The notes under the pieces are model-generated. The model was not told the DNA's origin. It searched no databases and worked only from the letters and a program-made list of their open reading frames with translations. The position numbers were made by a program, and so were the translations under genes. A DNA stretch of 62,326 bases, the filler included. It is 9 parts of 9 records of this genome, joined end to end, with 100 filler letters (N's around TTAATTAATTAA, not from the genome) between each part and the next. Parts side by side here need not be neighbours in the genome. Positions count along the whole stretch, not along the records: positions 25,717 to 32,305 come from SRR7504441_8084; 8 more parts are not named here. One strand, given 5' to 3'. Positions 6,732-46,167 of this stretch are shown piece after piece. Position 1 is the first letter of the stretch, and each line of letters begins with the position of its first letter.

Positions 6732-6764
6732 CCCCCCCCCCCCCCCCTCCTAAGCCGCGCAGTC

Positions 6765-7079
6765 TCACATGACTGCGCAATCTCTGAACCCGACCGTCGC
6801 CCCTCGGATCCTATTCATCTTGCCGCAGCCCCGGCATCGCCAGCTCGGCGCGCCGGGGGGCAGCGGGTACGGCACTCCGCAGAAGGCGCACGGGGTAGGA
6901 TGCACAGCCAGGGCGGTGGGCGCAGGGCCGGCGGACACCGGCTGGGCCAGCACCGGCTGGTGGGCCGCAGGGTGGTACGGCGGGGGCGGGGCCATGGTCG
7001 GGTGCGCCGGTACCGCATGGGCCGTGTACACCGGGGTGCTCTCCTCTGACTTGTTCAGCGAGAGCTTGTCATCAGACAT
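6765..7079 (-). CDS. Small Pro-rich zinc-ribbon protein with C-terminal CaaX box
   Basis: MSDDKLSL... PPPPY, CAFC..CRGC (two CxxC) and terminal CAVM-stop. Head-to-head with the ABCA gene. Confidence 0.6.
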   Translation of the reverse strand: MSDDKLSLNKSEESTPVYTAHAVPAHPTMAPPPPYHPAAHQPVLAQPVSAGPAPTALAVHPTPCAFCGVPYPLPPGAPSWRCRGCGKMNRIRGATVGFRDCAVM

Positions 7080-7197
7080 GGCCCTCTCTCTACTGCTTTG
7101 GAAACGGACGGCGTCACTCAGACTGCAACGCGGACCCGGCAACCACGACCGGGCGCTGATAGCACCAGCGCGGAGGCTGTATCAGCCGGTGCCGCAG

Positions 7198-10100
7198 ATG
7201 AGCCGGGACCCGGCCAGCGAGCGCCCCCCTCGAGCGGGCGGGCAGCTTCCGCCTGCCCGCGCCCATCAGCTCAAAGCAGGGGCCTGCGCGCAGCTCCGGC
7301 TGCTGATGTGGAAGGCCTTCAAGCTCAAAAGCCGGCAGAAGGGGGCCTCGTGCGCCGAGATGCTGCTCCCGATCGGCTTCTTCTGGCTGCTCGCCTTCCT
7401 CAACGTGTCGCTGGTCCGCCCGATCCACGAGCCCAGCCAGAGCCAGTTCCTAGGCACCGCCGGTAACGCAAACTGGCTCTCGCCGTTTATTGCCTACCAA
7501 TTGACCGGCGGCCGGGTCCTATTCGCCCAGGGCTCCTCCGCGGAAGAGGCACCCGCCGCCCTCGACCGGCTCTGTAATAAGGCTTACCGGCTCGGCCTGT
7601 CCGCGCAGCAGACGGCTGCGGGCAAGCTGGCGGTCGAGGGGTTCGTGCGCGCGGCGATGGCGCAGGCCAATCTGACCCAGGAGCGGCTGGCGGGCGGGGT
7701 GGAGCACCCGGTCTGCCAACGGTGGGACCCGGACATCCAGCCGCATGGAGTGATGTTTGACTCGGCTGCGGAGATGGAAAGCTTTGTGATGCAGCGTGCA
7801 GGCCGCCGTAATGAAATGCTGATCAGCGCGCTGTGTGGGCCGCCCGAGAGCCCAAATGTGACCTCCTCCGACGCGGTGGGGTGTGTGGCGGCTCAGTGCG
7901 CCGGTGAGTTCGATCAGTGTGCTGTGGCTCCCGATTGCATGATTGGCATGCGGTGCATGCAGGGCTGTGAGGCTAATGCCAGCTGTACTGTCATGTGCGG
8001 GCTGAAGCACAGGGCATCGGCGGAATTCGTCGAGGCGGTGTCGTGTGGGCTGCGGGAGGGCTGCTGGACATCCGTGCGCGGGGCCGATAGTGATGATGGC
8101 AACGACGATGCAGCCGGTGAGGAAGACGACATCCCCGGTGACTTCAACGCTGGCTGTCTCTTGGCCCAGGCTATGATCAGCCAGTACACGGGTGTGGTGC
8201 TGCATAGTCCCGGCCCGCATTGGGCTTACACGATCAGGACTAATTCTACCCAGCTAGGCTCTGGATCCAGTATCGCCCGGGGCCTCGTCACCAACATGCC
8301 CAGTACCACCACACTAGTCAGGCCATTCATGCCTGGCGCGTCGGACGGCTGGCGTGGATATGCGATCAGTGGCTTCGTGTGGCTCCAAAATCTGATCAAC
8401 TCGGCCATCCTGGACGACGCAGGCTCGTCAGGCTCCGAGGGGTCTGGCTCTTACACAGCCTTCCCCACCCCTTCATACGTTGTTAACCAGTTCATTCGTG
8501 TGCTGTTTCCAGTATCTGGCGGCTCGTTTGCGGGCTTCCTGCTCCAGTGCTTCTTCGTTATCTCTATCGGTCAACTGACCAAGGGGATTGTTACTGAGAA
8601 GGAGAAGCGGATCCGCGAGGGGCTCGCGACTATGGGGCTCAACACCTCTGTATATTGGCTGCACTGGATACTATTGTATGTCATCATATACGGGCTAATG
8701 ACCCTGCTGCTGGCCAAAGTCTGCACGTGGGGTCTCTTCACGTACAGCTCCTTTTGGCTGCTAGCTGTTTTCTTCCTGCTCTATCTACTGACTTTGCTGA
8801 CCTTTGGGCTGCTCATGTCAGTGTTTTTCACTCGAGCTAACGCGGCAGCTACAGTGGCCATGATTGTCAACCTCTCGCTGTTCTTCGTATGCAGTCTCAA
8901 GACCGATTCGCACTTGAGCAACGTCATGCTATCTCTCCTGTCCCCTGTGGCGTTCTCCAAAGGTCTCGGGGTGATTGGCACAGCAGAGGGAGGCCAAGTT
9001 GGCGTGGGGTTTGCAAACGCGTCGAATCAAGTCGGTGTAAGTGGAGCACTCACTCTTACTGAGGTTCTGGTCATGCTGGCGGTAGACGCGGTCTTGTACT
9101 TGCTTCTGGCACTATACTTTGATCAAGTGATTCCGCAAGAGTTTGGTCTCACTCAGCACCCATGTTTCTTTGTGTTCCCATCGTATTGGCGCCCTACCCG
9201 TGAGGTGATGCTCCCACAGCCCGACTCGCACAGCCAGCTCGGCGACGAGGATGATGGCATTGAGCTCGTTGAAGGCAACCCGGGCCTACAAAACTCTCCA
9301 GAAACAGTGGACCCAACCACCCCTCTTTCAATACCAATAGACATGCCATCTAGCGCAGAGAGCAAGGATGTAGAGGTGCTTACTCCAGATAGCAGCACCC
9401 ATGTAGGCATCTCGGTACAGGGGCTCAGGAAAGTATACAACACAGCTGATGGCGAACAGCGAGTGGCTGTGGCTGGTCTGGAGCTTGACTTCTTCGAGGG
9501 CCAGATCACAGTCATCCTTGGACACAATGGTGCCGGCAAGACTACCACAATTAACATGCTCACTGGAATGTGCCCGCCATCAGCCGGGGATGCTTATGTG
9601 AGTGGCTTTAGTATCTGCAACGCCATGGACGCAGTCCGGGCAAATCTTGGTGCGTGAACTCATGCTGCGGTGCTTATTGGTTGCAGGTGTCTGTCCTCAA
9701 TACGACATCCTGTTTGACCATCTTACAGTTGATGAGCACTTGCAGATGTACGCACGGCTCAAAGGCGTTCCTCGAAGAGAGATTGCCGATCAAGTGGAGG
9801 CGATCGTGCATGCTGTCGATCTTGCATACAAACGGCGTGCCTACGCTTCGGCGCTGTCAGGTCACTCCACTCTTAATACGATGCTGGTTGTTGGTCTAAC
9901 GAACTGGGTTTTAGGTGGAATGAAGCGAAAATTGTCAGTTGGGATTGCCCTCATCGGTGGATCCAAGGTTGCTTTTCTCGACGAACCGTCCAGTGGAATG
10001 GACCCCTCTTCTAGGCGGAAGATTTGGGACATGCTCAAGGAAGCCCGAGCCGGCCGGACCATTGTCCTTACGACACATTTTATGGACGAAGCAGATATCC

Positions 10101-13100
10101 TAGGAGACCGGATCGCGATCCTCTCGATCGGCAAGCTCCGAGCTGCGGGCACATCTCACTTTTTGAAGGCACGCTTTGGTGTGGGCTACACACTGACGTT
10201 GGTCAAGACCGGTGAGGATTCGGGTCAAAAGCTGCGCGAGCTTGTGCTGCTAAGTATACCGACGGCAAAAGTGGTCTCAGATGCTGGATCTGAGCTGTCC
10301 TTCGGGTTGCCCTTCGCAGCTAGCGCCGACTTTCCCAAACTCCTAAAGGAGTTTGAAACTCGACGCAAAGATCTCGGTCTCGGATCATATGGTCTCTCCG
10401 TGACTACACTCGAGGAGGTCTTCTTAAAGGTTGCTGAAGGGGAGCTCACCAGTGAAGACCCACCAATCTTTGATGACCAAGCCGACGAGCACATGCTTGC
10501 CGACCAAAATATTGAAAACAAGAACGACAGCCCAGCAGAAAGCCCGCCAGCGCCACAGAACGACACGGAGATGCTAGTCAGCTCAAGGGCCGGTGGTCGA
10601 TCAGAGAGCCGTCTTGTAGATCAAGGCGAGCTCAGGACACTATGCCGCCATGTCTATGCCCAGCTGGCCAAGCGAGGTTCTCAGGCAAGACGGGATCCTA
10701 GAAGCTGCATCTTTGTGTTTCTCATCCCAATAGCAGCGGTGGGTACTGCCCGCATTCCCAAGCTTACCCTGGTGGTTTAGGTGCTATTTGGCCTCATATT
10801 TGTGACTGTACTCGGATCGCAACTTGATGAGCCCAGTCTGCAACTCGACTTCACGAATGCCTTGCTGAAGAGCGACAACCTCTATGTCCCGGCAGTGGGC
10901 GACCTGTCCTCATCAGATAGCGACGCTCTTCAACAAGCATTGCCAAAAGTCAAGCTGACCTCCCCTGTTCCCAACACTACACCGCAGCTCCCTTGCAACG
11001 AGTCGTCCACCTACTCTCGACCCTGGGTTGCTTCAGTGGTCGAAGGTCTTCCACAGGTCAAATCCTCAACTTACGAGTACTTTGTGCGTCTAGCTAAACC
11101 CTATGTGGGGATCGCTCTGAATTGCATTTATGGTCGCTATTGCTGCATTGATGCGCATTCGGAGGAGGACACTTCAGACCGGCGTGAAGGCGAGGAATGC
11201 CTTGTTACGGACAATTCCCTGTGTTCAAGCGTCGGTAATGACTGCTGCGTCACTCGAGACAAACATCAGCACGAGGAGGCGACCTGCCGCGCCGGGTATA
11301 TTCCACAGATGACGGGGAACGGCTGCGGCAACAAAGGCAAAAGTCACGAATATCGATGCTGTAAACCTCCCGAAGAGTCAAGTTGTCCTTCTCCTGATAT
11401 GGCTGTGATACCAAGCTGCGAAGAACAATCAGAAGATGGAGATGCACTTCGTGGGATCCTGAGGCTGGACGAGCACTTGCTTGACGTCACTGGCCAGCCT
11501 GGCACGAGGCTCTCACACCTCGGGTCTCTGGTGTTCCGGGGTGAGTCTTTGGATCGCTTCACAGTTCTGCACAACACAGTGGCGCTGCATGCACTGCCAA
11601 CATGGCTTGGTGCCCTCGACAACGCACGACTCACTGCAGCCAACAGTGAACAGAGCATCACTGCTAGTAATCATCCTTGGCCCAAAACCCACAAGCAGAA
11701 AGTGAGCTTCGAGCTAGCTGCGGGGCTCCTGGTGGCGCTGCTGATCACAATGGGTCTCTGCTTTGTGCCCGCTGCGTTTACGTCTTATATTGTTCGCGAG
11801 AGGGAGCGCAAGACGATGCACCAGCAGCATGTGTCCGGGCTGAGTGTCTTCGCTTACTACTTTGGCAATCTTCTCTTTGACCTGCTCAGTTTCACAATTG
11901 CTATGATTATGATTCTAGGCCTGTTCTACCTCTTTGCCGACTACGCCCCAGCTTACACACACCATTTGAGCGAAACTTGCCTCGTTTTTGTTCTGTATGG
12001 CTTATCCTCAACTGCCTTCTCCTACGCCTTTTCCTTCTGCTTCAGTTCGTATGCATCAGCAACGGTGCTCTGCCGATGCCGCTGGTGTTTATTGCTTGTT
12101 ATCAGGTCGGAGCGCTGATGATGAACATTGTTAGTGGCTTGCTTTTCATGATAACGAGCTTCATCTTGCAAGCAATTGACGATGACACCAAGCAGGTTAA
12201 CAGTGTCCTAATCGTCTTTTTCTATCTATCGCCAGCCTTTTGTCTAGGGAACTCGCTGCTTGCCATATTTGCGTACTATGCGCTCGAAATCGTTGGAGCC
12301 GAATATGACGTGGATACAACTGAGCTGGCCAGTGACTTTGTAAACCTGTGGAACCCGCATGCGCAGCTCAACATCATCGTGCCAGTGATCTACATGACTT
12401 GTGGGTTCTTCTTTTACTTTCTGTTGTCCTTGATGCTGCAGCATTGGACCGGAGAGATTAACTGGTGTCTTTGGTGCAATCGTTCCGCCACAGACGACTT
12501 AGAGGCAATCAGCGAAGACGAAGACGTCCAGGCTGAACGCCACAGGGTAGAAAGCGGGAGTGCTATGCAAGATCCCATTGTGCTCAGCCAACTTCGGAAA
12601 GTCTACCCACCGCGACGGAATGTTGGACCAAAGGTGGCGGTTGCCAGCAGTTCTTTCGCTGTGCGGGAAGGGGAGTGCTTTGGTTTACTGGGAGTCAATG
12701 GTGCGGGCAAGACAACCACCATGGCAATGCTGACAGGGGAGTTCCGCCCAACAAGTGGTGGCGCCACTCTGGCGGGCTTTGACGTGGTAAAAGAGCGAAC
12801 CAGCGTGTATCGTAATCTTGGGGTGCGCGCCTCTTTCTCATTGCGCGATTAAGGCACTGTGCGGCAGTTCTGTCCGCAATTTGACGCTCTGTTTGAGAAA
12901 TTGACCGCAAGGGAACACCTGCAGCTCTATGCGACCATACGAGGAGTGCCGAGGGCCAAACGTGATGCCGTTATCGACCAAATCATTAGAGACCTAGACC
13001 TTGGAGAGTTCCAGAACAAGCTCGCAGGGACCTATTCTGGTACGGATTTGGGGCCGAGCGCATCGCTCAGCATGTGGTGCGTGGCAGGAGGGAACCGTCG

Positions 13101-15678: not shown

Positions 15679-17633
15679 ATGAGTTGCGAGGCCGAGCTGG
15701 AGCGGCTGCGGGCGGAGAACGCCGCGCTGCGGGCCCGTCTCCGCTGGGTTGGGCCGCTGATGCACCAGCAGGCCCCGGCGAGTGACGGGCGGGCCGACCG
15801 ACTCAAGGGCGCGAGCTTCGAGATGACCGGCGACCGGGCCGACCAGGACAGCTGGGTAAAGATGGCGCAGAACCGGGCCCATATGCGCGGCGCCGGCTTC
15901 CAGGCAGTCCGCCCGGTGGCAGGCCGGCTGACGGGCTGTGGCAGAGCGCAGACTTCACCAAGCCGATCGTGACGGTGGCGGTGACTTACTCGAACGCGCT
16001 GGAGTGCAACAACACGCTGCTCGACCTGGCCCGGGAGGTGTGCCGGCAGGTGGAGAGCCGGGGCGGGGTGGGGTTCTACTGCATGTGCCCGGTGATCTCA
16101 GACGGCAACACCCAGGGCACCACGGGGATGCGGTACTCGCTGATCTCCAGGGACTGGATCGCAGACTGTATAGAGATAATGCACTCCGGCTACATGGCGG
16201 ACGCGTGCATCACGCTGGGTGGCTGTGACAAAACCGTGCCTGGGTGCGTCATGCCGCTCGCCCGCACCGACGCCCCGGGCGCATTCATCTACGCCGGCCC
16301 TTTGGTGCCAGGCCATTGCGACCCGCCGCTCCGTCCAGACGCCCCAGCGCAGTACCACCGGGGGCTGGACGCGGGCAGCGTGGTGGAGGCGAGTGGCTCG
16401 TTTAAGGCCGGTCTGATCGACCTCGAGGAGCTGCACCGGATAGAGTGTGCGGCGATGCCGCGTTCAGGCACCTGCTCCGGCATGTTCACAGCAAACACAA
16501 TGGCGTGCGTAGTGGAGGCGCTCGGGATGTCTGTCCCAGGCCAGGCCGCGCACGTTGCCGCCTCGTCGGATAACCTCCCAAGCGAGGCCAAGATGCAGGA
16601 CTGCAGCGATGCGGTGGCCAGTGTCTTTCAGATGCTTGAGGCTGGAGTGACAGCGAGGCAAATCATGACCCGGCCGGCCTTTTTGAACGCGGTTGTGGTG
16701 CTGTATGCAGTCGGAGGGTCGACAAACGCCGTGATCCATCTGCTCGCGATGGCGCGTGAGGCTGGGCTCACCGAGGACGAGTTCAATATCACCATGTTCA
16801 ACCATTACAACGATACTGTGCCGATCCTGGTCAATCTAAGTCCTCACGGGCCGTACCACATGGTTGATCTGGACAGAGTAGGCGGGCTGCCGCTCATCAT
16901 GAGAGAGCTGCTCGAGAACGGGCTCATCACAGGCGACTGCCTCACTTGCACTGGAAAGACCGTATCCCAGAACCTGGCTACTATCCCGCGGCTCGCCGAC
17001 CTGCCTCCGCAAGATGTGGTGCTGCCCGTGTCCAGCCCGCGCGCCGCCCCGGGCCGGCACATCATCGTGCTGTCGGGCAACTTGTGCCCAGGCGGATCGG
17101 CTGTTTGCAAGCTCTCAGGTAAACGGATCGACAGGTTCAGCGGCTCTGCTGTCGTGTTCGATGATGAGAAGCTTGCCTACGACGCGATCCAGGCCGGGGT
17201 GGTCACTGCCGGCTGCGTGTGTGTGATACGGTACCAGGGCCCGGCTGGGGCGCCAGGCATGCCCGAGATGCTTTCGCCTGGAGGCGCGCTGGTAGGCAGA
17301 GGGCTGGGGGAGAGTGTCGCGCTGCTGACCGATGGCCGGTTCAGCGGGGCAAGCAGGGGAATCATGATCGGCCACTGCTGTCCTGAAGCAGCGCACGGCG
17401 GGCCGCTGGCTTTGTTGAGGGATGGGGATGTGATCCGAATCGACATGACGGAGAGGACGATCGATGTCGAGCTAGAAGCGCAGGAGATGGCCGAGCGGTC
17501 GCAAGTGTGGCAAGCGGTGCATCAAGGCCGGGCGCATCCCAAGCTGCCCGAGGGATACGCTGGGGTCTTGTCCAAGTATGCCTGCTCGGTCGGGTCGGCG
17601 CACGGCGGAGCGCTAACGAGCGGGCGATCATGA
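15679..17633 (+). CDS. ilvD: Dihydroxy-acid dehydratase (IlvD/Edd family)
   Basis: [84 protein letters not shown]. One intron ending at 15944 gives GF..DFTKPIV. Confidence 0.95.
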
Positions 17634-19544: not shown

Positions 19545-19644
19545 NNNNNNNNNNNNNNNNNNNNNNNNNNNNNNNNNNNNNNNNNNNNTTAATTAATTAA
19601 NNNNNNNNNNNNNNNNNNNNNNNNNNNNNNNNNNNNNNNNNNNN
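19545..19644. other. Artificial contig linker
   Basis: N44-TTAATTAATTAA-N44. Confidence 0.99.
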
Positions 19645-22183: not shown

Positions 22184-25100
22184 TCAACAATATACCCAGC
22201 CACAACAATCTTTGCTATTGCAGTAGCATGCTTGTTCAAATTGTTCGCGCTCAGGGACCGTCTCACGAGGATGGTAATTGATGGTTAGCTCTTCACCCTT
22301 TGTCACATTTCGGATGGTGATGAAGATGACGCGAGGTGGACAGCCCTCATGCTCATAGACATCGTAAGCCACCATGTTGGGGCTGCACGAGTGGTTTATA
22401 AACCGGGCTGCATTCCCGACGATCGTGGTGTCGATCGTGTACTGGGCAGTGTCTTCATTCTCAATGTCAAAGCTGAGGTACAGGCTCTGAGCATTGTATA
22501 CTTCTTCTCGGCGGTCAGCCTCGCGCTCAGTCACCACTTCCCCAATATACTCGACCACAAACTGCCCACTGGGGATGTCCGCGTCCGCAACCAGCCCTGC
22601 TCCCTTGCGCTCGTCCATGAGCTTGATTCTGAGTGGGAAGCGCACCCCTTTCCTCACCACTGCATTCCCACACACACCCCGGCTGCAATGCAGGCGAGCA
22701 AGCTCCCCCGAGCAGCGGCATCCGCCCGGCTTGTTAAGCGGGACAGGAGCAGAAACCCACGGCTGAGGGCGGCCACTGTTCATGATTTCTGGGCACCACG
22801 GTCCAATCGAGGTGCACCCAGCCATCGCGTTCTCATGCCACAGCAACAGCTGGTTCAGCGGGAGTGGTACCGACACAGGCACCTGTCCACTGTCAGTGGA
22901 TCGCCCTGCCAGGCACTTGCCTGGCCATGCAAGGTGCTGACTAGCGCTGCTCGGGTCGTGACATACCGAAAACCGAGCTGCTCAGGATCGAGATCCGACC
23001 AGACCATCGGCTCCACTTGGCAGCCACGACTCGCCTCCAAGTGCTGCAGGTTCGCGTGGCACACTTTGGCCACCTGACCACGACTAGTCAGCCCATCGGC
23101 ATTCAGCTTTGGGGTTACAAGCTCCGGATTCCACTCCAACGGCAGCGTATTTTCAAAATTGATCTGACGACCAGCTTCCTTTGCTCGGAGGTCGTACTCG
23201 GCTGCTGCGTCTTCCGGTGTGGAGTAGCATCCGAGATAGGTCTGCTGGCCGTTCACACATATGGTTGCACTCCACCTGCACACAGAGTCGCATTTTTCAG
23301 TTGATAGCTTGAACCAGAGATAGATGGCTCACCTCTCATGTGTTCCTGCCATAGCACTAACTCCCTTGTAGAGACACCTGGTCTGAGAAATGGTCCTCAC
23401 CCTGTTTTTGCTTGTGTTTGATCGTCGATGTTTCGGCTTGTGCTTGCCCTTCCCAGAGCACAGTTGCGCATGCTCCTTCTCAAGATCCTTATGTTGCTTG
23501 ATCAGACCACGTGGCCGAGTCACTGTATCAATTTTGGTTGGCCTTGTAACTGAGAGCCAAGGTCGCGGCGCCTGAGAGCGCAGGTGAGGCCACAGCGTGC
23601 GCTCATGATGCCTGTGCGCAGAAATCCAGCTTGACATATAGGACTGGCTCCGCCTCCAAGGCCACCTGCAGTGATTGGGTAAAATCCGCCGGCATCAGAT
23701 AGGCTTGCCGCTCTAAGGTGCAGCTCAAGTGGCGCCGACTTGAACAACTCTTGGGCAAATTCCTTGATCAAGTCGGGACAGAAGCAGTTGCTCTCCTCCT
23801 CCCAGGACAGTTCGGTCGACCCAACCCATTTGAGCAGAATCCAAAGGCGGCCGCTCGTGTCGACATCAAGATCCACGACTTCCTCCACCTGCCCAGCTGG
23901 TTTCAACCAGCAGCAAATCAAGCCGACCATACCTCCCAGCTAGCATCATCCGCAGCTCCTTCACCCCGTTTTGAGTGCTTGTTGGACCTTTGGTGGTCCT
24001 GCCGAAAGTCTCTGATGATAGCTAGCACCTCAGCGCCACTGGGATTGTTTTCGTCATCTAATTGCCGTTCAATTTCGACCACTGAACGAAGCTTGGTACC
24101 ATCATTACAAGTCACAATCATGTCTTTGACGCCTGCAGAGGCCCCCGACTGTCGCACCTTATACTCTACTGTCCAGCCATTGGGCAGCTCCAGACTGTCG
24201 TCGTTGGCACCACGATGGAACCTGCGTTGCTTACGCGTGCGGTCTTGCGGTGGACTGAACTTTCGGGGTGCTTCCCGCTTCCTGGAAGGTCGACGCGTCG
24301 TTCCACTGCGTCCTCTCTTGGCTTCTTTGATTGGTGCGGCATCTTCAGCATCCAATTCGCTGTCCTGCTGATTCTGCACCTCCCTGCACAGCACAGTAAG
24401 AGTGACGAACACGCAGCGATCGTCTACCTCAGCAGCATTCTCTTCCGTCCGTCGCCGATTTGCTGGTTTGAGATGCAAAGCTTGTCACATAGGATTGACA
24501 GCCGGAGCTTGCCAGCCTCGCCTCGGAATACCTTTTTGAATTCCGATTGCTCGTCGGTACTCAGGACCTACCCCCAAAGTCAAGGCTGATCTATTCGCTG
24601 CATGTGCTGGAATCTAGAGGTGCAGTTACCCGGTCATCCTCGATTCTAGTCATGAATCCTTTGTCCTCGATGGCAGCTTGTTTCACATCATGCTCCTTTC
24701 GGACAGCCCTAGGCGACCTAGCAGGAGCTTTTAGCGAGCGAGTAGGTGTCCCTTTGCTGTAGAAGCGCGCCTGCTTGTATTCTTGGATGGCATTCACAAT
24801 GTCTGTTGTCTTCTGCACAGTCTCATCGCTCAGATACTGCTGCACTTCTGGTACTGAACGAAGCCTTGTGCCATCACAAGCAGTCACAGTCAGGTCAATC
24901 CGACTTGCATCACTCTGCCGGACTCTGTGCGTGATAGTCCACCCGTGTGGCAAGTCTGTTGGCTCGAGCTCCGGGAGCCTGCTGGCAGGACTAATCTTCG
25001 GCCGGGACTTGGGTCGTTCTGCTTTGCTAGACTTCCTTGCTGCCACGCTGCAGTGGGCAGCTCTGTACTTTTGTACTGCAGCCACCACATCCACAAGTCG

Positions 25101-25616
25101 TGGATCACCATTCATGAGTCTTTCAATCTCCGGCACTGATCGAAGCCTGCTGCCATCGTTGCATATCACCACAATGTCAACGCTTCCTGCTGAATTTCCG
25201 GTCTTGCGAACGCTGTGCGCAATCTCCCAGCCATTTGGTAGTTCCATCCGCTCACAGTCTGCATGCCCTGCTCGCGACTTGGTTCGCTTGTGTGGCTTCT
25301 CGTCCTCATCATCTGAGGAATCGTCACTGTTGCGGCCATATTCAGCATAATTCACTTTTGTTCGTCTCCTAGCTGGCCTGGCCTCCAGATCCACGGGAGC
25401 GCTTGGCTCATTTAGCACGGCGCTCTTCCTCTTGAGCCTGCTGCTTGTACCAGCTTCAGGCACAGGAGCAGCAGGCTCAGCTTCAAGACCGACGGGCTCA
25501 GCTTTAATTTCGACTGTACCAGTTTGAGCTGCACCGTCCGTTGAAGGCTCCCCAGCCTGGGTTTCAAGCCCTGAAGCCTCTGCCTCGGGATCCGCAGCCT
25601 CAGCCTCAGCTGCAGG
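22184..25616 (-). CDS. SUV39/Clr4-like histone lysine methyltransferase with 3 MBD-like domains, chromodomain and AP2 domain; 5'-truncated by the contig end
   Basis: SET: KGAGL, FVVEYIGEVVT, GNAARFINHSCSPN, GEELTINY, post-SET CYCNSKDCCG. AP2: YKGVS..HE R|WSATICVNGQQTYLGCYSTPEDAAAEYD..INF. Chromo: WE|VEEVVD..LLKWVG..SWEEESNC. MBD-like: LPNGW..VRK.G.SAG..D....DG.RLRS..EI (x3). Introns 23889-23932, 23276-23332 and 22883-22920 join modules in frame. Confidence 0.8.
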
Positions 25617-25716
25617 NNNNNNNNNNNNNNNNNNNNNNNNNNNNNNNNNNNNNNNNNNNNTTAATTAATTAANNNNNNNNNNNNNNNNNNNNNNNNNNNN
25701 NNNNNNNNNNNNNNNN
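25617..25716. other. Artificial contig linker
   Basis: N44-TTAATTAATTAA-N44. Confidence 0.99.
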
Positions 25717-26109: not shown

Positions 26110-27359
26110 TCAAATTCTGAGAGGGGGCATCTCCTTAAAGTCTGCAATCGCGTACTGGCTCATAGAGGAGGCGGGCGAGCCGTCTCTGCTCATTGCTAGT
26201 TTGTACTCGAGCTTGTCAACTTGCTTCTCTAGCGACAAGATCCTCCTCATCTTCTCGCGCAGCAACGGACTGGGTGGCGCCACGCGCGGCCCGGCAGCTG
26301 GCACCAGCGAGGGCACCACCCAGCTGCCCCAGGAATGGATCACGCCATAGATGGTCGGGACCAGCATTATCTCGCTCAGCCGGAGTGCCCCTGAGCTGCT
26401 CGGAGTCCGACGCTTGGCTAGACGGAGCAGCCCATATGCGCTCAGTTGCCCGAGCAGCCCGAGCCCGATCCGGACCGCCCTTCGGGTGAGCGAGAGGTCG
26501 CCACAGTGCGGGAAATAGCCGAAAAGCCGTTGAGCGAGCAGCACCAGGTGACAGAGCGACGTGGACAGAGAGACACCTGCTGCGAGCGAGATGTCTTTGG
26601 CGGCCCACCGAGTTCGGCTCTTGTCGATCCATTTGAGCCCGAAGAGCAGCACGAAGCAGCCTATCACAAAGTTTCCGCACGCCACCCGCTTGGAAGGCCT
26701 CACTGGGTCTTCGGCAGTCTCACTGGACTGCATGTACCGCCGAGTGTACTCGCGGCATGGAAGCAGCACCAGCAGCCCTAGCACCAGCGCCCCGAGCACG
26801 TCGCACGGCAGGTGCGCCATCGCGCGCATCCGGGCTATCCCGACCACCCCCGCGATCCCGGCGAGCAGGGCGGACCGGCTGGTCGGCGACAGGTTTGTCT
26901 TGAACGCGAGCATGAGCCCGTGGAAGACCAAGGCCCCAGTGACGTGGCCCGAGGGGAAGCCGTACGTGGTGAGGCTCTCATCGAGCACCGCGTCGCTCAC
27001 CTGCACTTGGGACGACAGCCACATCGGCCGGGGGCCGCGGAAGGCCACTTTGCCCAGGGCCACCGCGCACACCAGCCATGAGACACTGTTCTGCAGGCAC
27101 CAGCCGAAGGCCGGGTCCACGCTCCAGAAGCAGGCGCAGCACATCGAGTTGATAGCTGCCCAGCCTGGTGAGCACCCTGGGGGGCGGCCGGCGCACCCTC
27201 GCCGCCGCTGAGCCGCTCGGCAAAGTGGGATAGGTGGGCGATCAGCTTGTTGTCCAGCCTGGGCTTGAGCGCCAGCAGCAGGCTGAGCTGGGCCCGGGGC
27301 GAGAGCAGCTTGGCCAGCAACCCGTCGGTCCAGAGCTCATCGATCTGCCCCCCCGCCAT
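26110..27359 (-). CDS. PAP2-superfamily membrane phosphatase
   Basis: C1 KVAFRGPRP, C2 GFPSGH, C3 ARMRAMAHLPCDV and multiple hydrophobic segments. Start MAGGQIDELW with one early intron. Confidence 0.85.
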
Positions 27360-28369: not shown

Positions 28370-29389
28370 TCACAACCGAACGCTCAGATTAAGAAGCTTT
28401 GTTCGTAGATCACTCAACACTCCATCGATAGGCGAGTCCACTGTCGCCATCATTGGCTCCAGCAGGGGTGTGGCCGGCTCTTCAAGCTCTTCCTCCTTGC
28501 TAGGCTCCTCTAACTGCATTGACGCCGGCAGGCTGCTCAGGGTTGCCTCGAGAGTAGGGCGCAACTTAGCAGTCGGCACCATCTCTGGCTCAGCCTCTAC
28601 TGGCTGCTCATTCTCCGGCTCCGGCTCGTCGGTCCCCGGCATCATGTTCTGCTCGGCCATCAGCTGCACCACCTTCTGGTGGACTGTGCCCGGGACATAC
28701 TGCTGTTTGGCCGCCATCTGGTTGGTCGCAGCGCTCTGTGCAAGCGGGGCTGACGGCTCAAAACCTCGCGAGACCCGAAACTCGTGCTGGCGGGCCGCAG
28801 ACTCTTCCGCCGCCGTCAGCTTCATCCGGAGCAGGTATTCGTCCCGAGCCGCCCTGTCCGCGTGCGCGCCGGGTGCGTTCCGGCCTGGCGGCTCGCGTCG
28901 GAGAGACCGGTCAAACTGCCTCGTCCAGTGCTCCGACAGCCGGTCGCGCTGGTTGCCGGCGGTGGGGGCCGACGCGGCCTCGTGGCTGTCTGGGACGACA
29001 TGTTGGGGCGGCAGCGGCACCGAGTTGAGGTCAGCTTGGGTGGGAGCCGGGTGCTGCATCTTGAACGAGGTCGTCATGAGCTCTTGCCGGGTATGCGACG
29101 GCTGCCGCTTGAACGAGCCGTCATGGGGCTTGTACGCCTCGGTGGTGCTGCTGTGAGACGCGGCCGGGGCCCCGGGGTGGGACGGCACCCACTGCTTGGA
29201 ATAGGTCTGGTTGATCATCCGCTCGCGGCCGGTGTTGAGCGGTGCGCTGGACGGCGGTGCATCCAGGCCGTAGATCAGTCCCTTTGAGGAGGGGGCGGCC
29301 ACGCTGTCCTTCGTGTTCAAGTCGCGGAACAGGCCAGCCTCCTGAGCGGCGACCGTAGTCGGCTCTGGGCCACCAGAGTCGAGTGCCAT
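28370..29389 (-). CDS. Hypothetical, largely disordered protein
   Basis: ~340-codon ORF with coding-like composition and an acidic/Pro-rich C-terminus. No family recognised. Confidence 0.5.
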   Translation of the reverse strand: MALDSGGPEPTTVAAQEAGLFRDLNTKDSVAAPSSKGLIYGLDAPPSSAPLNTGRERMINQTYSKQWVPSHPGAPAASHSSTTEAYKPHDGSFKRQPSHTRQELMTTSFKMQHPAPTQADLNSVPLPPQHVVPDSHEAASAPTAGNQRDRLSEHWTRQFDRSLRREPPGRNAPGAHADRAARDEYLLRMKLTAAEESAARQHEFRVSRGFEPSAPLAQSAATNQMAAKQQYVPGTVHQKVVQLMAEQNMMPGTDEPEPENEQPVEAEPEMVPTAKLRPTLEATLSSLPASMQLEEPSKEEELEEPATPLLEPMMATVDSPIDGVLSDLRTKLLNLSVRL

Positions 29390-29574
29390 TGCCAACGTCT
29401 TTCGAAACGAAAAATTTCACTGTGTCAACGGTTTCTAGAGTCTAACGGCTCATGATACGAGAGAGGGGGCAGTCAATCAAGGGCATGTCGAGGCCCGAAA
29501 TGAAGCACGTTCACTACTAATTGATCATTCAGGGGCGCGAGCATGTCTTGAGAGGCCTTTATTCACAATTGGCA

Positions 29575-32305
29575 TTACAGAATCGCCGCATTGTCCTCGA
29601 GCTCCCGTGCGAGCTTATCGTACTCGATCTTGAACGCTTGTAGATTTATCAGTGCGCTTTGCCACGCGACTTCACACGACTGGTTCTGCCGGATCAGCGA
29701 GCCTAATCGGGGACCACGGCTCAGAGCGAGGAGCAGCTTGTGATGCTCGGGCTGAAAGAACTGCCGCTGGTGCTCGAGCGAGCCGAGCTCCGGTCTAGTT
29801 TCGACAAAGTCGAGGGCTGCAGCAACTAAAGGCACCAGGGGCGAGTGCAGAAGACTCGCACGCTGGTTCGGCTTGTCGACCGCAGCCATGAGCGGCAGCA
29901 CCCGCTTTCGAAACACGTAGGACTCGCTCTGGACGGCTGCGAGCTCCGCAGTCTCGCGCATCACTTCGAGGCAAGCTGCCACGTGCGCTAAGTGCCACTG
30001 CAGTGACCTCGCACTACTTTGGGCTGCTGCGTGCTGGGCACCCACACACGCAGCGAGCAGCGAGCCGGCCAGCGCGCCGTGCAGAGAAGCCACTGCAATG
30101 CACGGCCGCTCCTCGTCCATCCCACCGTACACGTTGAGAGCCCTGACCATGTTGCCCTGCTGTGCTGGCTGGTTCTGATCGAGCTTCGTCCAGTTGGTGA
30201 GCACGAATGAATGAAAACTCAGCTCTGTGCTCGAGAGCTCGAGCAGCTGGGCTAGCCGTTGCTGCAGGCCCCACACTTGGGGCGCGACCGGTGCATCCGT
30301 GGGCCCCGCTCGGCTGTGGAACGCAGCATTGGAGAGCACAGAGGCTATCGTGAGGAGCGCTCGGAGCTTTGGATGGCTCAGCAGCTCAAGTGCCGCTCCT
30401 GGCTGCAGGCACTCGTCCGGGAGAGCCGCCACTGCGGTGTGCAGCTGGTCTGCGGCGATCAGTGACGGGACAGATGTGGCCACACGCAGCCAAGCCTCAT
30501 TCAGCCCAAGCTCTGCTATCTCTCCTACTGAGGGAGCCAATCCCGACTCGACTGTCACACCATAGTCGCCCAGGAAAGCGACTGGCCTGGTGCTGGCATG
30601 CTCAGATATGGCCACCAGAATATCCTGTCGAATAGAGTGCCATGCATCAGTGCCTGCACAGACTTTGGTCAGCCCTAAAGCACCTCAGCCTATGTACGCA
30701 CCCGGCATGAGCAGCTCCTGATGATTCTTCGACGCTACACTCCGTGCTGCCACCCGGAAGCACTGCTTACTACCTGGCTTAGAGGCTCCGGGACGTGCCC
30801 AGGAACTCGACTGCAGTTCAGCAGCCTGGCCCATCTTATAATTGACGGCAACCGCATTCTGCGTATACTCCAGCATGGCTTCTTTGGCACCGTCAGACAC
30901 AGATTCGCTGCAGGCTAGGATAGTCGGGCTCTTGACAGGCAGAACACCACAAGCGGAACACTTGACATAGTCGTCATCGTCAGGGGGGTGCCCGAAGAGC
31001 TCGCCAACCGTACTCAGCGAACCCTTGGGTGCGTCTTTGGTGAGATCGGGAACTGCAGCCACCGCCAACACCAGTCGGACGACTAATTTCTGCAAACGGC
31101 CCACTGCCCACAGCGCAAACGAGGCCCCAAGCCCATAGCCTACCACACAGACGCAGCTCAGGTCAAGCGCGCCGCCCATCAGCTGCTCAGGCTGGGTCTC
31201 AATAAACTGCATCGCTTCTAGAACATCCCACGTCGCATCTGGGAGTCGGTCCCTGTACGAGAGCGCCAAAACTGCAACGCCACGCACACACAGGTCTGCG
31301 ACCAAGCCGTCGACCAGAGTGGGGAACTCGCCTCTTGGATCAGCTACAACAATGACAACGGGAGCACGTTGTGCCCTTGCGGATGGCAGGTAAAGTTTGA
31401 GGTTCTGCGACTCGAGCGATCCATACTGCACGGAAGAGCTCTCAAACGTGTTGGCAGGAGCAGGAGCCGGAGCAAAGCACTGAAGCCCTTCCTTCTCAGC
31501 TCGAGCACCATGGGCCCCTATCAGGTCAGTGGTCGTCGTTATTATACCACTCAATCGGTGTCGAACCATTGCAGCCTGCTCGTTGGCTTCATCGCTGTAA
31601 TGGTCATCTGTGTCGACACTAAAAGGGATGGTGGCACCACCCTCGATCTTGCGATAGTTATGGCTTGTCGTAGCTAATGTCGTTGCACTTCTCGCCTCAA
31701 AAGCCTCTTCATTACGACCCTCTGGTAGTGGCGACCGCATTTGAGAGCCAACACTACCTATCTCGGACGACAACTTGATGGATTGTTGAGATGTTGGTGT
31801 TGCTCCGCCCTCATCCAGAGGCTTTGACACGACAAGAGGCAGATTTTCCTCCTTTTTCGATGACTCGGGCAACTTTTCGGGTTGCTTGGGCACATCAGAG
31901 CCCCTTGACTGAAGTTTGGACAACTGAAGGGCACCTGGAGTGGGCCGTTTTCCACCATGAAAATCAGCCCACTCCGCAAAGGTGATCACGCCATCGCCAT
32001 TTGCATCGATCTGATCAAAGATTGCCATTGCCTTCTTGTACCTCTCTGGGTCGGCCTCAGCAAATTTGGCCAGTGCCTCACTCATGTCTCCCGTCCCCAC
32101 CCCATTACCGATGCCTAGATTGCCTGTCGATAGCCCGTCGACACAAGGACTGTCTGTCGACAGGCCTGGGCCCTCTCTTGAATCATTATCAGCAGCCCCT
32201 CTGCCTGTGATGCTTTTGGCATTCGCATCAGCACGCGTGGCCTGCTCCTCCATATGTACACTACCATCGCCCTTAAACCATGATCCATCTGGCGCATTTT
32301 CCGCT
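29575..32305 (-). CDS. EF-hand + alpha/beta-hydrolase-like + indoleamine 2,3-dioxygenase-like fusion protein (probable pseudoenzyme); frame open to the contig end
   Basis: EF loop DANGDGVITFAE; hydrolase YGSLESQNLKLYLP..GVAVLALSYR..VVGYGLGASFALW..HQELLMP|GTDAW; IDO-like SFVLTNWTKLD..GGMDEE..SPLVPLVAAALD..RQFFQPEHHKLL. A 48-nt GT-AG intron at 30654-30701 joins ORFs 30685-32253 and 29575-30615 in frame. Confidence 0.7.
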
Positions 32306-32405
32306 NNNNNNNNNNNNNNNNNNNNNNNNNNNNNNNNNNNNNNNNNNNNTTAATTAATTAANNNNNNNNNNNNNNNNNNNNNNNNNNNNNNNNNNNNNNN
32401 NNNNN
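32306..32405. other. Artificial contig linker
   Basis: N44-TTAATTAATTAA-N44. Confidence 0.99.
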
Positions 32406-32800: not shown

Positions 32801-34566
32801 CTACAGCCAGGGACCCCAGAATCCTTGATTCTGAACGACACGCTCGCACGCCCCGTCGCGATCTGGCGCCCCCCGATCCGGATCATACAATGTCTCGTCG
32901 AGCGCTTGCATTCGCTTCAACAAGCTAGCCGCCAGCTCCGGTTTCTCCCGGGCAAGATCCCTGTGCTCGGTCGGATCTGCAAACACATCGAACAGACAGC
33001 CCACCTTATCCCGAGTAGTACACTGCTCTACAGTAGCCCAGGTGTCCCAGTCCGAGCTGTTGGGATAAGTCGGCCCAGTCCAACTGGCCTGTGAGATGTT
33101 GCCCACAATCAGCTTATGCCGCCCGACCAGGAGAGCCGCGTCGCCCGAGCGAGTGTTGAGCCCGGCCGCACGGAGCGGGGTGAACCATACTTCTTGCCTC
33201 GGGCTCGTCTTGTTGGCGCCCGAGATATGACCCCACAGGTTCAGGCTGTCGATCGCCGGCAGCCCGGCCGCAGCTGCGACCGGGTCGCTAAGGTTGCACC
33301 CCGCCACCGCGCAGAACGTCGCCATCCAGTCGGCTAGGTGCATAAGCCCTTCCACCGACCGGCCGGCCGCGGCATCGGGCAGGTAGCCACCATTCACGAG
33401 TCCCGGGGCCCTCACACCGCCGTCCCAGTTTGTGTAGTAGCCTCCTCGCAAAGGATACGCGCTCTTGCCGCCCGTGACGCGCTCGATTGCCGCTCCATTG
33501 TCGCTGCTCCATACGAATAAGGTGTTATCCCACATCCCGGCGCTGACCAAGGCATCGACCACCCGGCCAACGCTCTCATCCATAAACGCTGCCATCGCCG
33601 CCACATACCGCCTGTCTTCATTCTCAATCGCAGCAAACCGGTCCAGCAGCGCTGGTGGGGCACACAGCGGCGAGTGCAGCAGATGCATTGCGTAGTACAG
33701 AAACATGGGCGCGCCGGGGCTTCCGGCCGCCGCAGCCTCGGCTTGGTGGTGCTCGATTATATTCACGGCACGCTGTGTGAACAACTCCTCTTCGAAGCCG
33801 GTCCCGTTCATCGTGAGATTCACGCCATGTGCCGGGCCCTCTCGCCCGTCCGCCGCCTCCCACAGGTCTGTGGTCCACCCGAGGTGCCGCGCCAGGACAG
33901 ACGCACTCGTGCAACGCGCAGCTTCGCCCGGCCTCGGCACAGTCCCATTAGCATCCGACGGGTAGCGCACAACTCCGGGGAACTGCGCGCAGCTGGCTCC
34001 CGGCGGGCCGTGCGGGGTGCCAGAGCTGCCACCTGAGCTCCAGCCGTGCAAGTAGCCGTTGTAGGCCCCGGCGATGTACCCCAAGCTTGAGTCGAACCCC
34101 CGCCCACGCGGCGTGTGCCCCTCGGTCGCGAACCCCGCGCTGCCACCCCCGCGCTCAGCAAGCCGGCGGTGGGTTGCACGCACTGCCACTTGCCAATGTG
34201 GTGCGTGCGATACCCGAGCTGCCCGAGCTTCCTCGGCAGGGTGGTCATGTTCGCTGGTATACCCGCCCTGGGCCGGGTCTGGTCGTCGTTCCGGATGTTC
34301 ACCCGCTGCGGGATACGGCCCGAGAGCAGGCTGCACCGGCTGGGCGAGCAGAACTCGTACGTGTAGAGCCGGTCGAGCACCGCACCCGATGCGGCCAGGC
34401 TGTCCAGCCGGGGGGTGGCCACCTCGGGGGATGGCCCGGCTGGCGAGGTTGCCCGGAGGTAGCCTAGCCCGCCCCATCCGATGTTGTCCGCCAGCATGTA
34501 GACAAGGTGAGGCCGGCTGCCCGTTGCCACCCGGCAGAGCAGCGCCAGCGCCATGGCGAGCCGCAT
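32801..34566 (-). CDS. Secreted formylglycine-dependent sulfatase (arylsulfatase B/I/J-like)
   Basis: Signal peptide, PHLVYMLADNIGW, CSPSRCSLLSGR (CxPxR), IGKW H|AG across intron 34140-34183, RGFD, SSDNG, YPLRGG..WDGGVR, HLADW, LFDVFADPTEHRDL. Confidence 0.93.
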
Positions 34567-34728
34567 GCAACTACTCATCACCCGACGACGCCGGAGGGGC
34601 CTGCTCATTCGTCAGCCGTTATTTCCACCCGAACTCGGGGAGAGGATGCTGGGGATAGCACCGAGCTCGCTCAAGTACTACGAGCTGGCTGTGCCAGCTC
34701 AATTAATGCCTGCTACGGTTCACTTTAA

Positions 34729-38528: not shown

Positions 38529-38628
38529 NNNNNNNNNNNNNNNNNNNNNNNNNNNNNNNNNNNNNNNNNNNNTTAATTAATTAANNNNNNNNNNNNNNNN
38601 NNNNNNNNNNNNNNNNNNNNNNNNNNNN
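38529..38628. other. Artificial contig linker
   Basis: N44-TTAATTAATTAA-N44. Confidence 0.99.
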
Positions 38629-38698: not shown

Positions 38699-40420
38699 TC
38701 ACAACTGTGCACGGTTTCCCATCCTTTGCACCGCTTCGATGATGTAGTAGCCTCCGTATATCAAGCTCACGTTGAAGTTGTCGGGCGACCAAGCCGGGTT
38801 GGCGCCCACCGCATGCAGAAGCACTCCCTCCGTCTGATCGAAATCACCAAGGTACCCTCCCGCGAGCGACGACACCAGCCGCTCGCCCGCATCCCGGTAG
38901 TTCCGGCCCGCCACGCCTCCTAGCTCAATCAGCGCTGCGCTGGCAATCGCCGCAGCAGAGGCGTCCCGATAGTTCACCGTCTGCGGGCTTGGCCACGCAA
39001 AGTCCCACAGCGGCACGCTATCCCGTGGGTCGCCCTGCCTGCTGGTTTGATTCAGCCAATAGTCGGCACAGCGCTGGGCAGTGTCCAGGTGAAGCTTAAG
39101 CCCAGAATACCGATGGGCCATTGTGAATCCATAAATGCACCAAGCCTGCCCGCGCGACCAGGTGGAGTCGTCGGCCAGGCCCTGGGCGGTGCACCGGCGC
39201 TTGACTCGCCCGGTGGCCGGGTCATAGTCAACCACGTGATAGGTCGAACCGTCCGGCCTCACGTGGTTGGCTGCAGTGCGATTTGCATGAGAGACAGCGA
39301 TCTCATGCAACGTACGGTTCCCGGTGCGGGCCGCCGCCCAGAAGAGCAGTTCGAGATTCATCATGTTGTCGATGATCACAGGGAACTCCGCGGTGTACTC
39401 GGGATCAGCCTTGCAACGGTGCCCTGCACTCCAGCTCTGAGTGCACCCTACCACCGGGTTGAAACGGGTGGCGAGTGAGTGTGCGGCCGTGCGGACCACG
39501 CCGTCGTATCCGAGCCCGGCCAGCCGGCGGTGCGCGGCAGGGTCGGAGGCGGTGTTGAGCAATGCCTGGCCGAACGAATCAAACACCATGAATCCAATGT
39601 CATGCGTGATGGTGTTGTGCTGCTGGGAGCGCATGCCCTCGGTCCAACGGATGGCTTGCTCCATCCACTCGCGCTGGCCGGTCTGGTTGTACAGCTTCCA
39701 TAGCATCCCCGGGAAGAAGCCGGCCACCCAGCCGCTGGGGCTAGTCGAGGTCCAGGTATTGAGAGCGCCTCTGCTCACAGCGGTGTGAGTGCTCGAAGGG
39801 TAGTCGCCGTGCTCGCCCGGGACCATCGTGCTGGCTGTCCGGTTGCACTGTGCGGCAACCGCTGCCATCACCCGGCTGCTGGCCGCCGGCGCACTCAGCC
39901 CAGGTTGGCAGACGGCCGGGTCCGCAGTCCTGATGACGAATTCCCAGTCGCACCCCGCGGCCTGTTGGCCGGTAGCCGCAGTTCGCCAGGTCGGCAGCGT
40001 CGGGTCGCACTCGAGCCGCAGGCCCACGGTGGTGTTGTCCCGGCAGTCGATGTGAGCGTCCCCGAAATGCGAGAAGCGGAGAGTGAGCCCGTCTGCCGAC
40101 GGCTCAGCCGGGCGGAGATCCTCCCAGTGGGCCAGAACATCCCAGCAGGTGCCCGGCTTTTCGCCACGGTAGGCCGAGAACACATTGCCCGGCGGCATCA
40201 GGGTGCCCATCTCGGCGTCGCGGCACCGGTGGGGGAGATTACCACATACCGAGATGCCGTAATGGTTGCCGCTGGCTCCCGCGGCCCAGATCGTCTTGCT
40301 AGCCCAGCTGGACAGGTCGTACCGATGCCCGCCGGACTCAAAGATGCACTGGGGGGTAGCCGCGTTGGCCACAGCCGCAACCACGGCCAGGACGAGCATT
40401 CGGCCCATTGTCTTCATCAT
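38699..40420 (-). CDS. Secreted glycoside hydrolase family 88 (unsaturated glucuronyl hydrolase) with N-terminal MRH-like domain
   Basis: [74 protein letters not shown]-terminal signal plus C...YDLS..YGISVCG..C module. No frame-breaking intron. Confidence 0.9.
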
Positions 40421-40498
40421 GACAGCACAGCACACACTGTCAACTCAACGGCCGCAAAAGTCCGTTACCGTCGGAGCACGGCGGCAGTGATCACGCCG

Positions 40499-42640: not shown

Positions 42641-42740
42641 NNNNNNNNNNNNNNNNNNNNNNNNNNNNNNNNNNNNNNNNNNNNTTAATTAATTAANNNN
42701 NNNNNNNNNNNNNNNNNNNNNNNNNNNNNNNNNNNNNNNN
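42641..42740. other. Artificial contig linker
   Basis: N44-TTAATTAATTAA-N44. Confidence 0.99.
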
Positions 42741-46067: not shown

Positions 46068-46167
46068 NNNNNNNNNNNNNNNNNNNNNNNNNNNNNNNNN
46101 NNNNNNNNNNNTTAATTAATTAANNNNNNNNNNNNNNNNNNNNNNNNNNNNNNNNNNNNNNNNNNNN
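46068..46167. other. Artificial contig linker
   Basis: N44-TTAATTAATTAA-N44. Confidence 0.99.

Follow-up and report, generated by a model that had tools for sequence, protein, structure and literature searches.

A stretch of DNA of 62,326 nucleotides (hereafter, the window), in which nine contigs from an uncultured marine eukaryote are joined end to end, contains at 29575-32305, on the minus strand, a gene that would code for a fusion protein with the following successive parts: (i) an EF-hand; (ii) a low-complexity linker; (iii) an alpha/beta-hydrolase-like domain; and (iv) a domain with the fold of indoleamine 2,3-dioxygenase (IDO). Both enzyme-like domains have lost residues on which catalysis depends in their intact homologues, and the frame is nonetheless open throughout. 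The explanation that we favour, with a rough probability of 0.55, is that of a gene which descends from a hydrolase–IDO fusion, was inactivated in both domains and is maintained, its product having gained an EF-hand and working, in response to Ca2+, in binding or regulation; this last step is the one that we infer.

A preliminary description of this gene, drawn up from the DNA letters, had pointed out a canonical EF loop, a nucleophile elbow GYGLG devoid of Ser, FKIEY in place of the FRxxH motif of IDO, the lack of the terminal GTGG and a 48-nt intron, with a CTGAC site, whose removal joins the two halves and completes HQELLMP-G-TDAW. Each of these elements is confirmed at its coordinates, and the fusion of an EF-hand, an alpha/beta-hydrolase and an IDO with both active sites degenerate is borne out by profiles, alignments and structure match. 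As a whole, the interpretation then given, i.e., a Ca2+-regulated pseudoenzyme or metabolite sensor, is partly supported: a fusion with two degenerate active sites that is not visibly decaying stands, whereas Ca2+ regulation and sensing are what we infer from it.

The two enzyme-like folds and their active sites

The IDO-fold domain (29578-30594; residues 20-358 of exon 2) is recognised by the Pfam profile PF01231 with 47.7 bits (cutoff 26; E 1.3e-12; profile positions 3-229 of 412), as well as by a hidden Markov model (HMM) built from 12 bona fide IDOs, with 107 bits over positions 8-344 of 383 and an E of 6.7e-32 that is relative to the window's own set of open reading frames (ORFs) only. 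The AlphaFold2 model of this domain, based on 37 alignment rows, reaches a predicted local distance difference test score (pLDDT) of 87.3 and a predicted template modelling score (pTM) of 0.86. Foldseek matches the model to human IDO1 (hIDO1) with a template modelling score (TM) of 0.72 and E 5e-11, and structure alignment to IDO2 and IDO1 gives Z 31.6-31.1, with a root-mean-square deviation of 3.0-3.5 Å over 326-330 residues, model residues 20-358 being superposed on residues 7-361 of hIDO1. The exon-2 half, earlier called IDO-like from its motifs, is in this way matched to an IDO fold by both profile (1.3e-12) and structure (Z 31).

Few of the residues that characterise the family have been kept in this fold. 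Out of 67 columns conserved at at least 80% in 26 full-length IDOs, the window domain retains 24, as compared with 48-66 (median 61) in the full-length IDOs; identity to active IDOs is 20-25%, and the IDO HMM score is 103.6 bits versus 325-564 for full-length IDOs. The kept columns lie mostly in the first half (NW, D158, N167, GGxDE). Among the losses, the following can be listed: the WF pair changed to RP (W to R182, F to P183); E to H191; R to L237; C to S242; R to L252; D to A277; the deletion of the YEGV segment; and the loss of the G-x-[ST]-[AG]-A-Q-S loop (G to R264, A to L268, Q to H269). The proximal-His column, occupied by His in 96% of the 26 full-length IDOs and corresponding to the haem ligand of FRxxH (H346 of hIDO1), has Tyr in the window protein (exon-2 residue 344); three columns earlier, Arg has given way to Lys. 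This is the FKIEY found at 29620-29634. All five GTGGT columns are gaps, the protein stopping 14 residues past the ligand column. As the domain ends at about residue 360 of hIDO1, it is without the JK loop and last helix of the human protein, and no ORF supplying IDO HMM positions 345-383 (a missing C-terminal exon) was found in the window. Judging from these residues, His-ligated haem dioxygenation would not be possible.

The alpha/beta-hydrolase-like domain (30598-31452; approximately residues 285-553 of the spliced product), which spans the intron, is identified by BLASTP, alignment and Foldseek. On the Pfam BD-FAE profile it stays below the cutoff (11.4 bits versus 26.8; E 0.23). BLASTP relates it to proteins P0017 (3e-9, 31% over 206 columns) and P0049 (2e-9, 29% over 164 columns), both of which carry BD-FAE above the cutoff. 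The AlphaFold2 model, from an alignment of three rows, has a pLDDT of 62.8 and a pTM of 0.68 and is poor past residue 140. In Foldseek, all 40 rows listed among ranks 1-50 are alpha/beta-hydrolases (probability 0.99-1.00, TM about 0.45), the top match being esterase B 4ouk (E 4.7e-8, TM 0.46).

In the nucleophile elbow of this domain, GYGLG (31126-31140), Gly replaces Ser; it aligns with the GHSAG of two intact homologues, P0017/P0061 and P0049, so that GHSAGG has become GYGLGA. The oxyanion-hole motif HGGF[WF] is gone as well: DPRGEF (31324-31341) stands at its position, with PRGEF aligned to HGGFW or HGGFF. The catalytic-His column, on the other hand, is kept (NHQEL versus DHYNL). It lies in the stretch NHQELLMP-G-TDAW (30640-30726), which comprises this His position and the next helix and aligns with DHYNLVTADDKMW in P0017 and DHYNLITAGDKMW in P0013. 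The residue aligned to the acid is Val, followed two positions later by an Asp; owing to an insertion of 26 residues (count made by eye), this part of the alignment is uncertain.

An unlikely alternative is that of a neofunctionalised enzyme, in which one or both domains would catalyse via other residues, for instance through Tyr-ligated haem, or through the His together with water or another nucleophile. It would be consistent with an IDO fold fully kept as far as the helix bearing the haem-ligand position, with a Tyr placed exactly at the proximal-His column (Tyr is a possible haem ligand, as in catalase-type proteins), with the retained His column of the hydrolase, and with new His residues at two conserved pocket columns, i.e., H191 and H269. 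Nevertheless, the nucleophile position is taken by Gly, which has no side chain, the HGG motif has disappeared and, after the loss of the WF pair, the G-x-[ST]-[AG]-A-Q-S loop, the Arg columns 237 and 252 and the segment past hIDO1 residue 360 or so, little of the known pocket is left.

IDO makes N-formylkynurenine, and the next step is performed by kynurenine formamidase, an alpha/beta-hydrolase. The hydrolase domain has hence been labelled a presumed N-formylkynurenine formamidase, a label that the preliminary description gave with caution and that stays tentative, as the only observations in its favour are that hydrolase and IDO are fused in three lineages and that the IDO–GDSL fusion P0028 exists. 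The latter (603 amino acids, aa, on a 1.2-Mb ENA contig) consists of an IDO and a C-terminal GDSL/SGNH lipase-type domain, and is an independent fusion of IDO to a different esterase/amidase fold. By sequence, the hydrolase is of the hormone-sensitive lipase (HSL) type: compared with PDB, the hydrolase of the intact fusions (described below) groups with HSL-type carboxylesterases (best match 9x6a, 2.9e-17; 2.5e-27 with a profile), no entry named kynurenine formamidase is present in its 51 matches (E <= 10) or in the best 60 of 194 profile matches, and NCBIfam returns on the intact fusions only HSL-type lipase/esterase models below cutoff. By fold, Drosophila kynurenine formamidase is found among the matches of the window model at ranks 19 (4e15_B; E 4.1e-6, TM 0.43) and 40 (4e14), below many esterases.

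Prokaryotic gene order lends no support to the label: when 80 bacterial IDO loci were scanned over ±4 kb with an HMM of the two intact-fusion hydrolase domains, a related hydrolase was found at one (E 1e-4). IDO homologues 37-42% identical to protein P0004 are common in metagenome-assembled genomes of freshwater Actinomycetota (Nanopelagicaceae, Planktophila, Ilumatobacteraceae), and a few more bacterial homologues are found in Melainabacteria, Fimbriimonadia and Runella. Animal kynurenine formamidases cluster with carboxylesterase-like GXSXG hydrolases (PMC5171882); this clustering is compatible with a formamidase assignment and not specific to it. No literature linking the motif HGGYW to kynurenine formamidase was found. 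Kynurenine formamidase (AFMID; Drosophila KFase, 4e14/4e15) is described as an alpha/beta-hydrolase of the carboxylesterase type with GXSXG (PMC5171882), whereas the window domain has no nucleophile, which argues against N-formylkynurenine hydrolysis by it.

Gene structure, splicing and the EF-hand

From ORFs, translation and contig map, the gene, as far as its contig at 25717-32305 (6.6 kb) reaches, is open at its 5' end at 32305 and comprises two exons: (i) exon 1 (30702-32305), which codes for the EF-hand, the linker and most of the hydrolase-like domain, and whose phase is 1, the G of a GGC codon being its last base; and (ii) exon 2 (29575-30653), which codes for the last hydrolase-like helix and the IDO-fold domain, up to a TAA stop codon at 29575-29577. 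Before splicing, the minus-strand ORFs 30685-32349 and 29575-30684 share a frame, with one TGA between them. The 48-nt intron (30654-30701; GTGCGT...CTGAC...CAG) is a GT..AG element with a CTGAC branch-like site 15 nt before its 3' end and an in-frame TGA inside (30685-30687); its removal takes out 16 codons, gives ...HQELLMP-G-TDAW... and leaves, between the contig edge and the TAA stop, 893 uninterrupted codons for a product of 893 residues.

At the 5' side, the first in-frame ATG is at 32251-32253 and the frame is still open at the contig edge, so the N-terminus of the fusion protein may be missing; no overlap between contig ends that could extend the gene in this direction was found within the window's contigs. 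At the 3' side, an AATAAA (29558-29563) is located 12 nt past the stop codon, and one RNA-library contig continues colinearly past the stop codon as far as 29550, just beyond this AATAAA. This is a weak hint, as contigs cannot show RNA ends.

The RNA-library data come from four marine runs of three studies (out of nine runs with small shares, 0.05-0.18). Nine contig pieces, with 95-100% identity, cover 1478 of the 2682 coding positions, in both exons; the gaps are at 30561-30828, 31047-31764 and 32039-32300, and no joint was reported. As to the RNA check over the intron that the preliminary description had proposed, RNA-library contigs of these marine runs lie on both exons and none crosses the intron, hence the joining of both halves rests on homology and splice signals.

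It is therefore conceivable, albeit improbable, that the gene model is wrong, either because the intron is kept at least sometimes, in which case an EF-hand and a truncated pseudo-hydrolase would be made up to the TGA and the IDO-like frame would be untranslated or separate, or because the EF-hand belongs to another gene. Apart from the lack of RNA contigs over 30561-30828 (the intron) and 31047-31764, such a possibility is favoured by an intron length that is a multiple of three, so that retention shifts no frame, and by a contig of only 6.6 kb in a fragmented assembly. Several observations speak against it. First, removing exactly 48 nt gives an alignment across the junction that is free of gaps with P0013 and P0017 (NHQELLMPGTDAWHSIRQDILVAISE versus DHYNLITAGDKMWHQVARKLTAMLQE), and has one gap with P0049; the distance from the hydrolase His to DYGVT, where the IDO domain starts, then becomes 35 residues, the same as in P0013 (both counted by eye on the alignment). 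Second, the first Met of the exon-2 frame is residue 178, and residues 28-177, which match IDO profiles and the related protein P0003, precede it and must be translated from upstream. Third, the GT..AG and CTGAC signals are accompanied in the window by a proven intron with the same GTGCGT donor: at 34140-34183, on the minus strand of a sulfatase gene, 44 nt with CTGAG and a CAG acceptor, whose removal restores GKWH-AGFATEGHTPRGRGFD (GKWH-AGF...RGFD) and links the Pfam Sulfatase half-matches of ORFs 33820-34611 and 32801-34570. The organism thus has very short introns. Finally, there is no stop codon between the EF-hand and the hydrolase, and the stretch 31765-32038 is covered by colinear RNA-library contigs. 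By itself, the GTGCGT..CTGAC..CAG pattern is not significant (two matches in the window versus 0.43 expected; two are reached in 9 of 100 shuffles). A 49-nt GTGCGT...CTGAC...CAG element at 1377-1425, on the plus strand, is laid out like the intron of the fusion gene.

The EF-hand loop, DANGDGVITFAE (31972-32007; 12 residues, residues 100-111), fits the canonical D-x-N-x-D-G-x-I-x-x-x-E, and the surrounding residues 94-115 exceed the Pfam cutoff of EF-hand_5 (26.6 bits versus 25.9; E 3.8e-6); EF-hand proteins of PDB match this region down to 6.2e-5. EF-hands are usually paired. The pair model EF-hand_7 gives 17.0 against a cutoff of 30 and a single loop is seen, in a protein whose N-terminus is cut at the contig edge. 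Between this motif and the hydrolase-like domain extends the linker (31453-31947; approximately residues 120-284), with some 165 residues of low complexity by composition, rich in S, A, E, P, T and G, in which no Pfam family match was found. The G+C content at third codon positions (GC3) is 0.49 over residues 1-284, i.e., EF-hand plus linker, as opposed to 0.61-0.69 in both domains and 0.63-0.77 in other genes; this same part (31453-32304) carries three of the five non-synonymous variants dealt with below. This part seems to be under weaker constraint than the remainder of the gene, or to be of more recent origin.

Relatives, descent and maintenance

A full HMMER search of 1.84 billion representative proteins (E <= 0.001) yielded 58 relatives. 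The best one, P0003, is a fragment of 140 residues with 40% identity (1.4e-15), and the others are 23-38% identical. When 20 of the 58 were scanned with Pfam, 19 carried PF01231 and P0003 did not. On the IDO HMM, P0003 scores 38.6 bits, and it has the derived motifs SFH, GNM and VYG in common with the window protein; these shared motifs and the low IDO HMM score make it probable that a diverged subfamily occurs in one or more other organisms. Protein word-index searches with exon 2 (near, longer and shorter lengths) gave no match, metagenome-contig scans with an alignment and with P0002 confirmed no relative, and a genome-contig search with P0049 gave no match. From the empty word-index and metagenome searches it follows that the window protein and its close orthologues are absent from those collections.

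The preliminary description had also proposed to look for catalytically intact fused orthologs, and proteins with the same domain order do exist. Two of them, P0017 (735 aa) and P0049 (676 aa), consist of an N-terminal BD-FAE hydrolase (E 2.5e-16 for P0017/P0061; 3.9e-18 for P0049) and a full-length IDO (profile positions 4-411 and 2-409 of 412, respectively). Cluster look-up assigns P0061 (791 aa, from the cluster of P0017) to Karlodinium veneficum, P0049 to Paulinella chromatophora, and P0013 and P0063 to Prorocentrum cordatum; these last two are partial, with only the C-terminal part of the hydrolase. HGGF[WF], GHSAGG, the His, GETGAQSS, FRxxH and GTGGT are all kept in P0017/P0061 and P0049; P0013, cut at both ends, shows only the His and GETGAQSS.

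The window protein is colinear with the three intact-type fusions, splice junction included. It has their domain order, an inter-domain linker as long as that of P0013 and a hydrolase 29-31% identical to theirs. The differences are that, from a set of motifs which in the intact fusions also includes the D-H pair, the window protein retains the hydrolase His and has lost the others, the acid of that pair only apparently so; that it adds the EF-hand and the linker of about 165 residues; and that it is without the last 40 or so profile positions. Colinear architecture, hydrolase homology and a linker of the length seen in P0013 suggest that the intact hydrolase–IDO fusion type was ancestral to it. 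These intact fusions appear to be undescribed in the searchable literature: no description of dinoflagellate or Paulinella hydrolase–IDO fusions was found in the full-text articles searched. In PMC4217691, fusion and formamidase are terms of the reference list only, and bioRxiv 10.64898/2026.06.05.730449 contains neither fusion nor fused. Nor was any literature found on an IDO-like pseudoenzyme in connection with haem and the proximal histidine.

That the window domain descends from the fused clade is neither demonstrated nor contradicted by the IDO tree. In a quick tree, the midpoint root falls on the window branch; in a careful tree (log-likelihood, lnL, -25038.16), the window domain joins at the deepest split, with no supported neighbours. 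Left out of the tree were the redundant P0017, P0062 and P0064, as well as rows covering fewer than 250 HMM positions. Forcing a clade of the window domain with the fused group, which was named only after the tree had been seen, costs about 3 lnL units and is not rejected by the approximately unbiased test (p-AU 0.777). The terminal branch of the window domain amounts to 4.02 changes per column, about five times the median of 0.76. From this end branch and the low HMM score, it is clear that the IDO domain evolved fast.

Of the 15 differences between the RNA-library contigs and the window, 10 are synonymous and five non-synonymous, whereas changes of the same mutation types would be expected to give 4.6 synonymous ones (P 0.0036). 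Within both domains, the figures are nine of 11 versus 3.6 expected (P 0.001); within the EF-hand and linker region, one of four is synonymous. Random errors in the contigs would bias against an excess of synonymous changes. Neutral decay, which the preliminary description had named as what would speak against it, is made unlikely by the open frame, the confident IDO fold and the synonymous excess. A decaying unitary pseudogene of a once-active fusion, transcribed yet under no selection, is very improbable: the loss of both active sites, the long terminal branch, the lack of close relatives, save one fragment, among the 1.84 billion representatives and a whole-gene GC3 of 0.60, somewhat below the 0.63-0.77 of most neighbouring genes, would agree with it, but not 893 codons free of stops and frameshifts at an identity to active IDOs of only 20-25%, an IDO fold predicted at pLDDT 87, the excess of synonymous variants and a P0003 that is 40% identical, derived motifs included.

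As for the maintained, doubly inactivated fusion, a number of points weigh against it. Regarding the structure of the gene and protein: (i) the contig end cuts the N-terminus; (ii) only one EF loop is present; (iii) no RNA-library contig of the marine runs crosses the intron; and (iv) the hydrolase model is middling (pLDDT 62.8, three alignment rows). Regarding its history and maintenance: (i) the IDO tree does not group the window domain with the fused clade, and the group submitted to the AU test was delimited after the fact; (ii) the sole close relative is the fragment P0003; (iii) RNA-library contigs do not prove transcription; and (iv) the variant test comprises 15 sites in low-depth contigs.

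Regarding the surroundings of the gene, the nine contigs of the window measure 3.3-12.8 kb each and are joined by identical linkers of 100 nt, N44-TTAATTAATTAA-N44, at 6632-6731, 19545-19644, 25617-25716, 32306-32405, 38529-38628, 42641-42740, 46068-46167 and 53273-53372. As this joining is artificial, gene adjacency across a linker, such as that of the sulfatase gene and the fusion gene, is meaningless. Within the contig of the fusion gene, an ORF without family match (28370-29416, same strand) begins about 185 nt downstream of the stop codon, so that genes are closely packed at this place. Pfam further recognises genes at 6754-12852, 15786-17633, 24591-25616, 26110-27336, 38699-40444 and 58951-60195; they correspond to an ABCA-type transporter, which is split among a number of ORFs, an intronless dihydroxy-acid dehydratase, an MBD protein, a PAP2 phosphatase, a GH88 hydrolase and a leucine carboxyl methyltransferase. 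Transfer RNA and Rfam scans of the whole window gave no match.

Possible role and known counterparts

In the explanation that we favour, the ancestor would have been a two-domain fusion of a BD-FAE/HSL-type alpha/beta-hydrolase and an indoleamine 2,3-dioxygenase, which gained an EF-hand and a long flexible linker on its N-terminal side. Having lost the residues described above, the present protein would be incapable of serine-hydrolase chemistry and of His-ligated haem dioxygenation. Both retained folds may instead form a module that binds a small ligand of the indole or kynurenine kind, or else another protein, for example an active paralogue, and Ca2+ at the EF-hand may switch the activity or the location of the protein. 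A bolder version, speculative and rather unlikely, is that the module which leads from tryptophan to N-formylkynurenine and then to kynurenine was turned, both sites together, into a calcium-gated receptor or regulator that would recognise pathway ligands, or haem via the new Tyr, with no turnover. It would then amount to a double pseudoenzyme sensor derived from a pathway, in a lineage of uncultured marine protists.

Three more known systems can be compared with the window protein. Human IDO1 and IDO2 have the fold in common with its IDO domain (Z 31.1-31.6) at 17-19% identity; in the window protein, the proximal His is replaced by Tyr, and the JK loop, GTGG and terminal helix are missing. 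The gibberellin receptor GID1, a stand-alone plant protein that is a non-catalytic receptor, belongs to the same branch of the hydrolase superfamily (3ebl_A matches the hydrolase of the intact fusions at 1.1e-4, and at 5e-9 with a profile). GID1 keeps the Ser and is without the His, whereas the window protein shows the reverse, i.e., the His is kept and the Ser is gone. The IDO-like myoglobin of vetigastropod molluscs is also an IDO-family protein that went from tryptophan dioxygenation to another role, tryptophan metabolism having been lost (PMC4191572); it is the closest precedent in print for an IDO fold that is not an enzyme. Binding of haem and O2 persists in this myoglobin, whereas the window protein has neither the His ligand nor the complete pocket, and has a dead hydrolase and an EF-hand joined to it.

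Pseudoenzymes and non-catalytic IDO folds are already known, and the double-domain fused case adds to them. A pseudoenzyme ordinarily consists of one dead domain. In this protein, both members of a pair of fused domains are inactivated: IDO, with which the kynurenine pathway begins, and the hydrolase, presumably its second enzyme. Despite this double inactivation, frame, fold and synonymous-biased variation are kept, and a Ca2+-binding motif has been added. In addition, the intact hydrolase–IDO fusions of dinoflagellates and Paulinella support a functional link between an esterase-type hydrolase and IDO. If confirmed, the window protein would be a natural case for a role of the IDO fold without its haem ligand, the same question about the ligand-free IDO fold that is raised by the non-enzymatic signalling ascribed to mammalian apo-IDO1.

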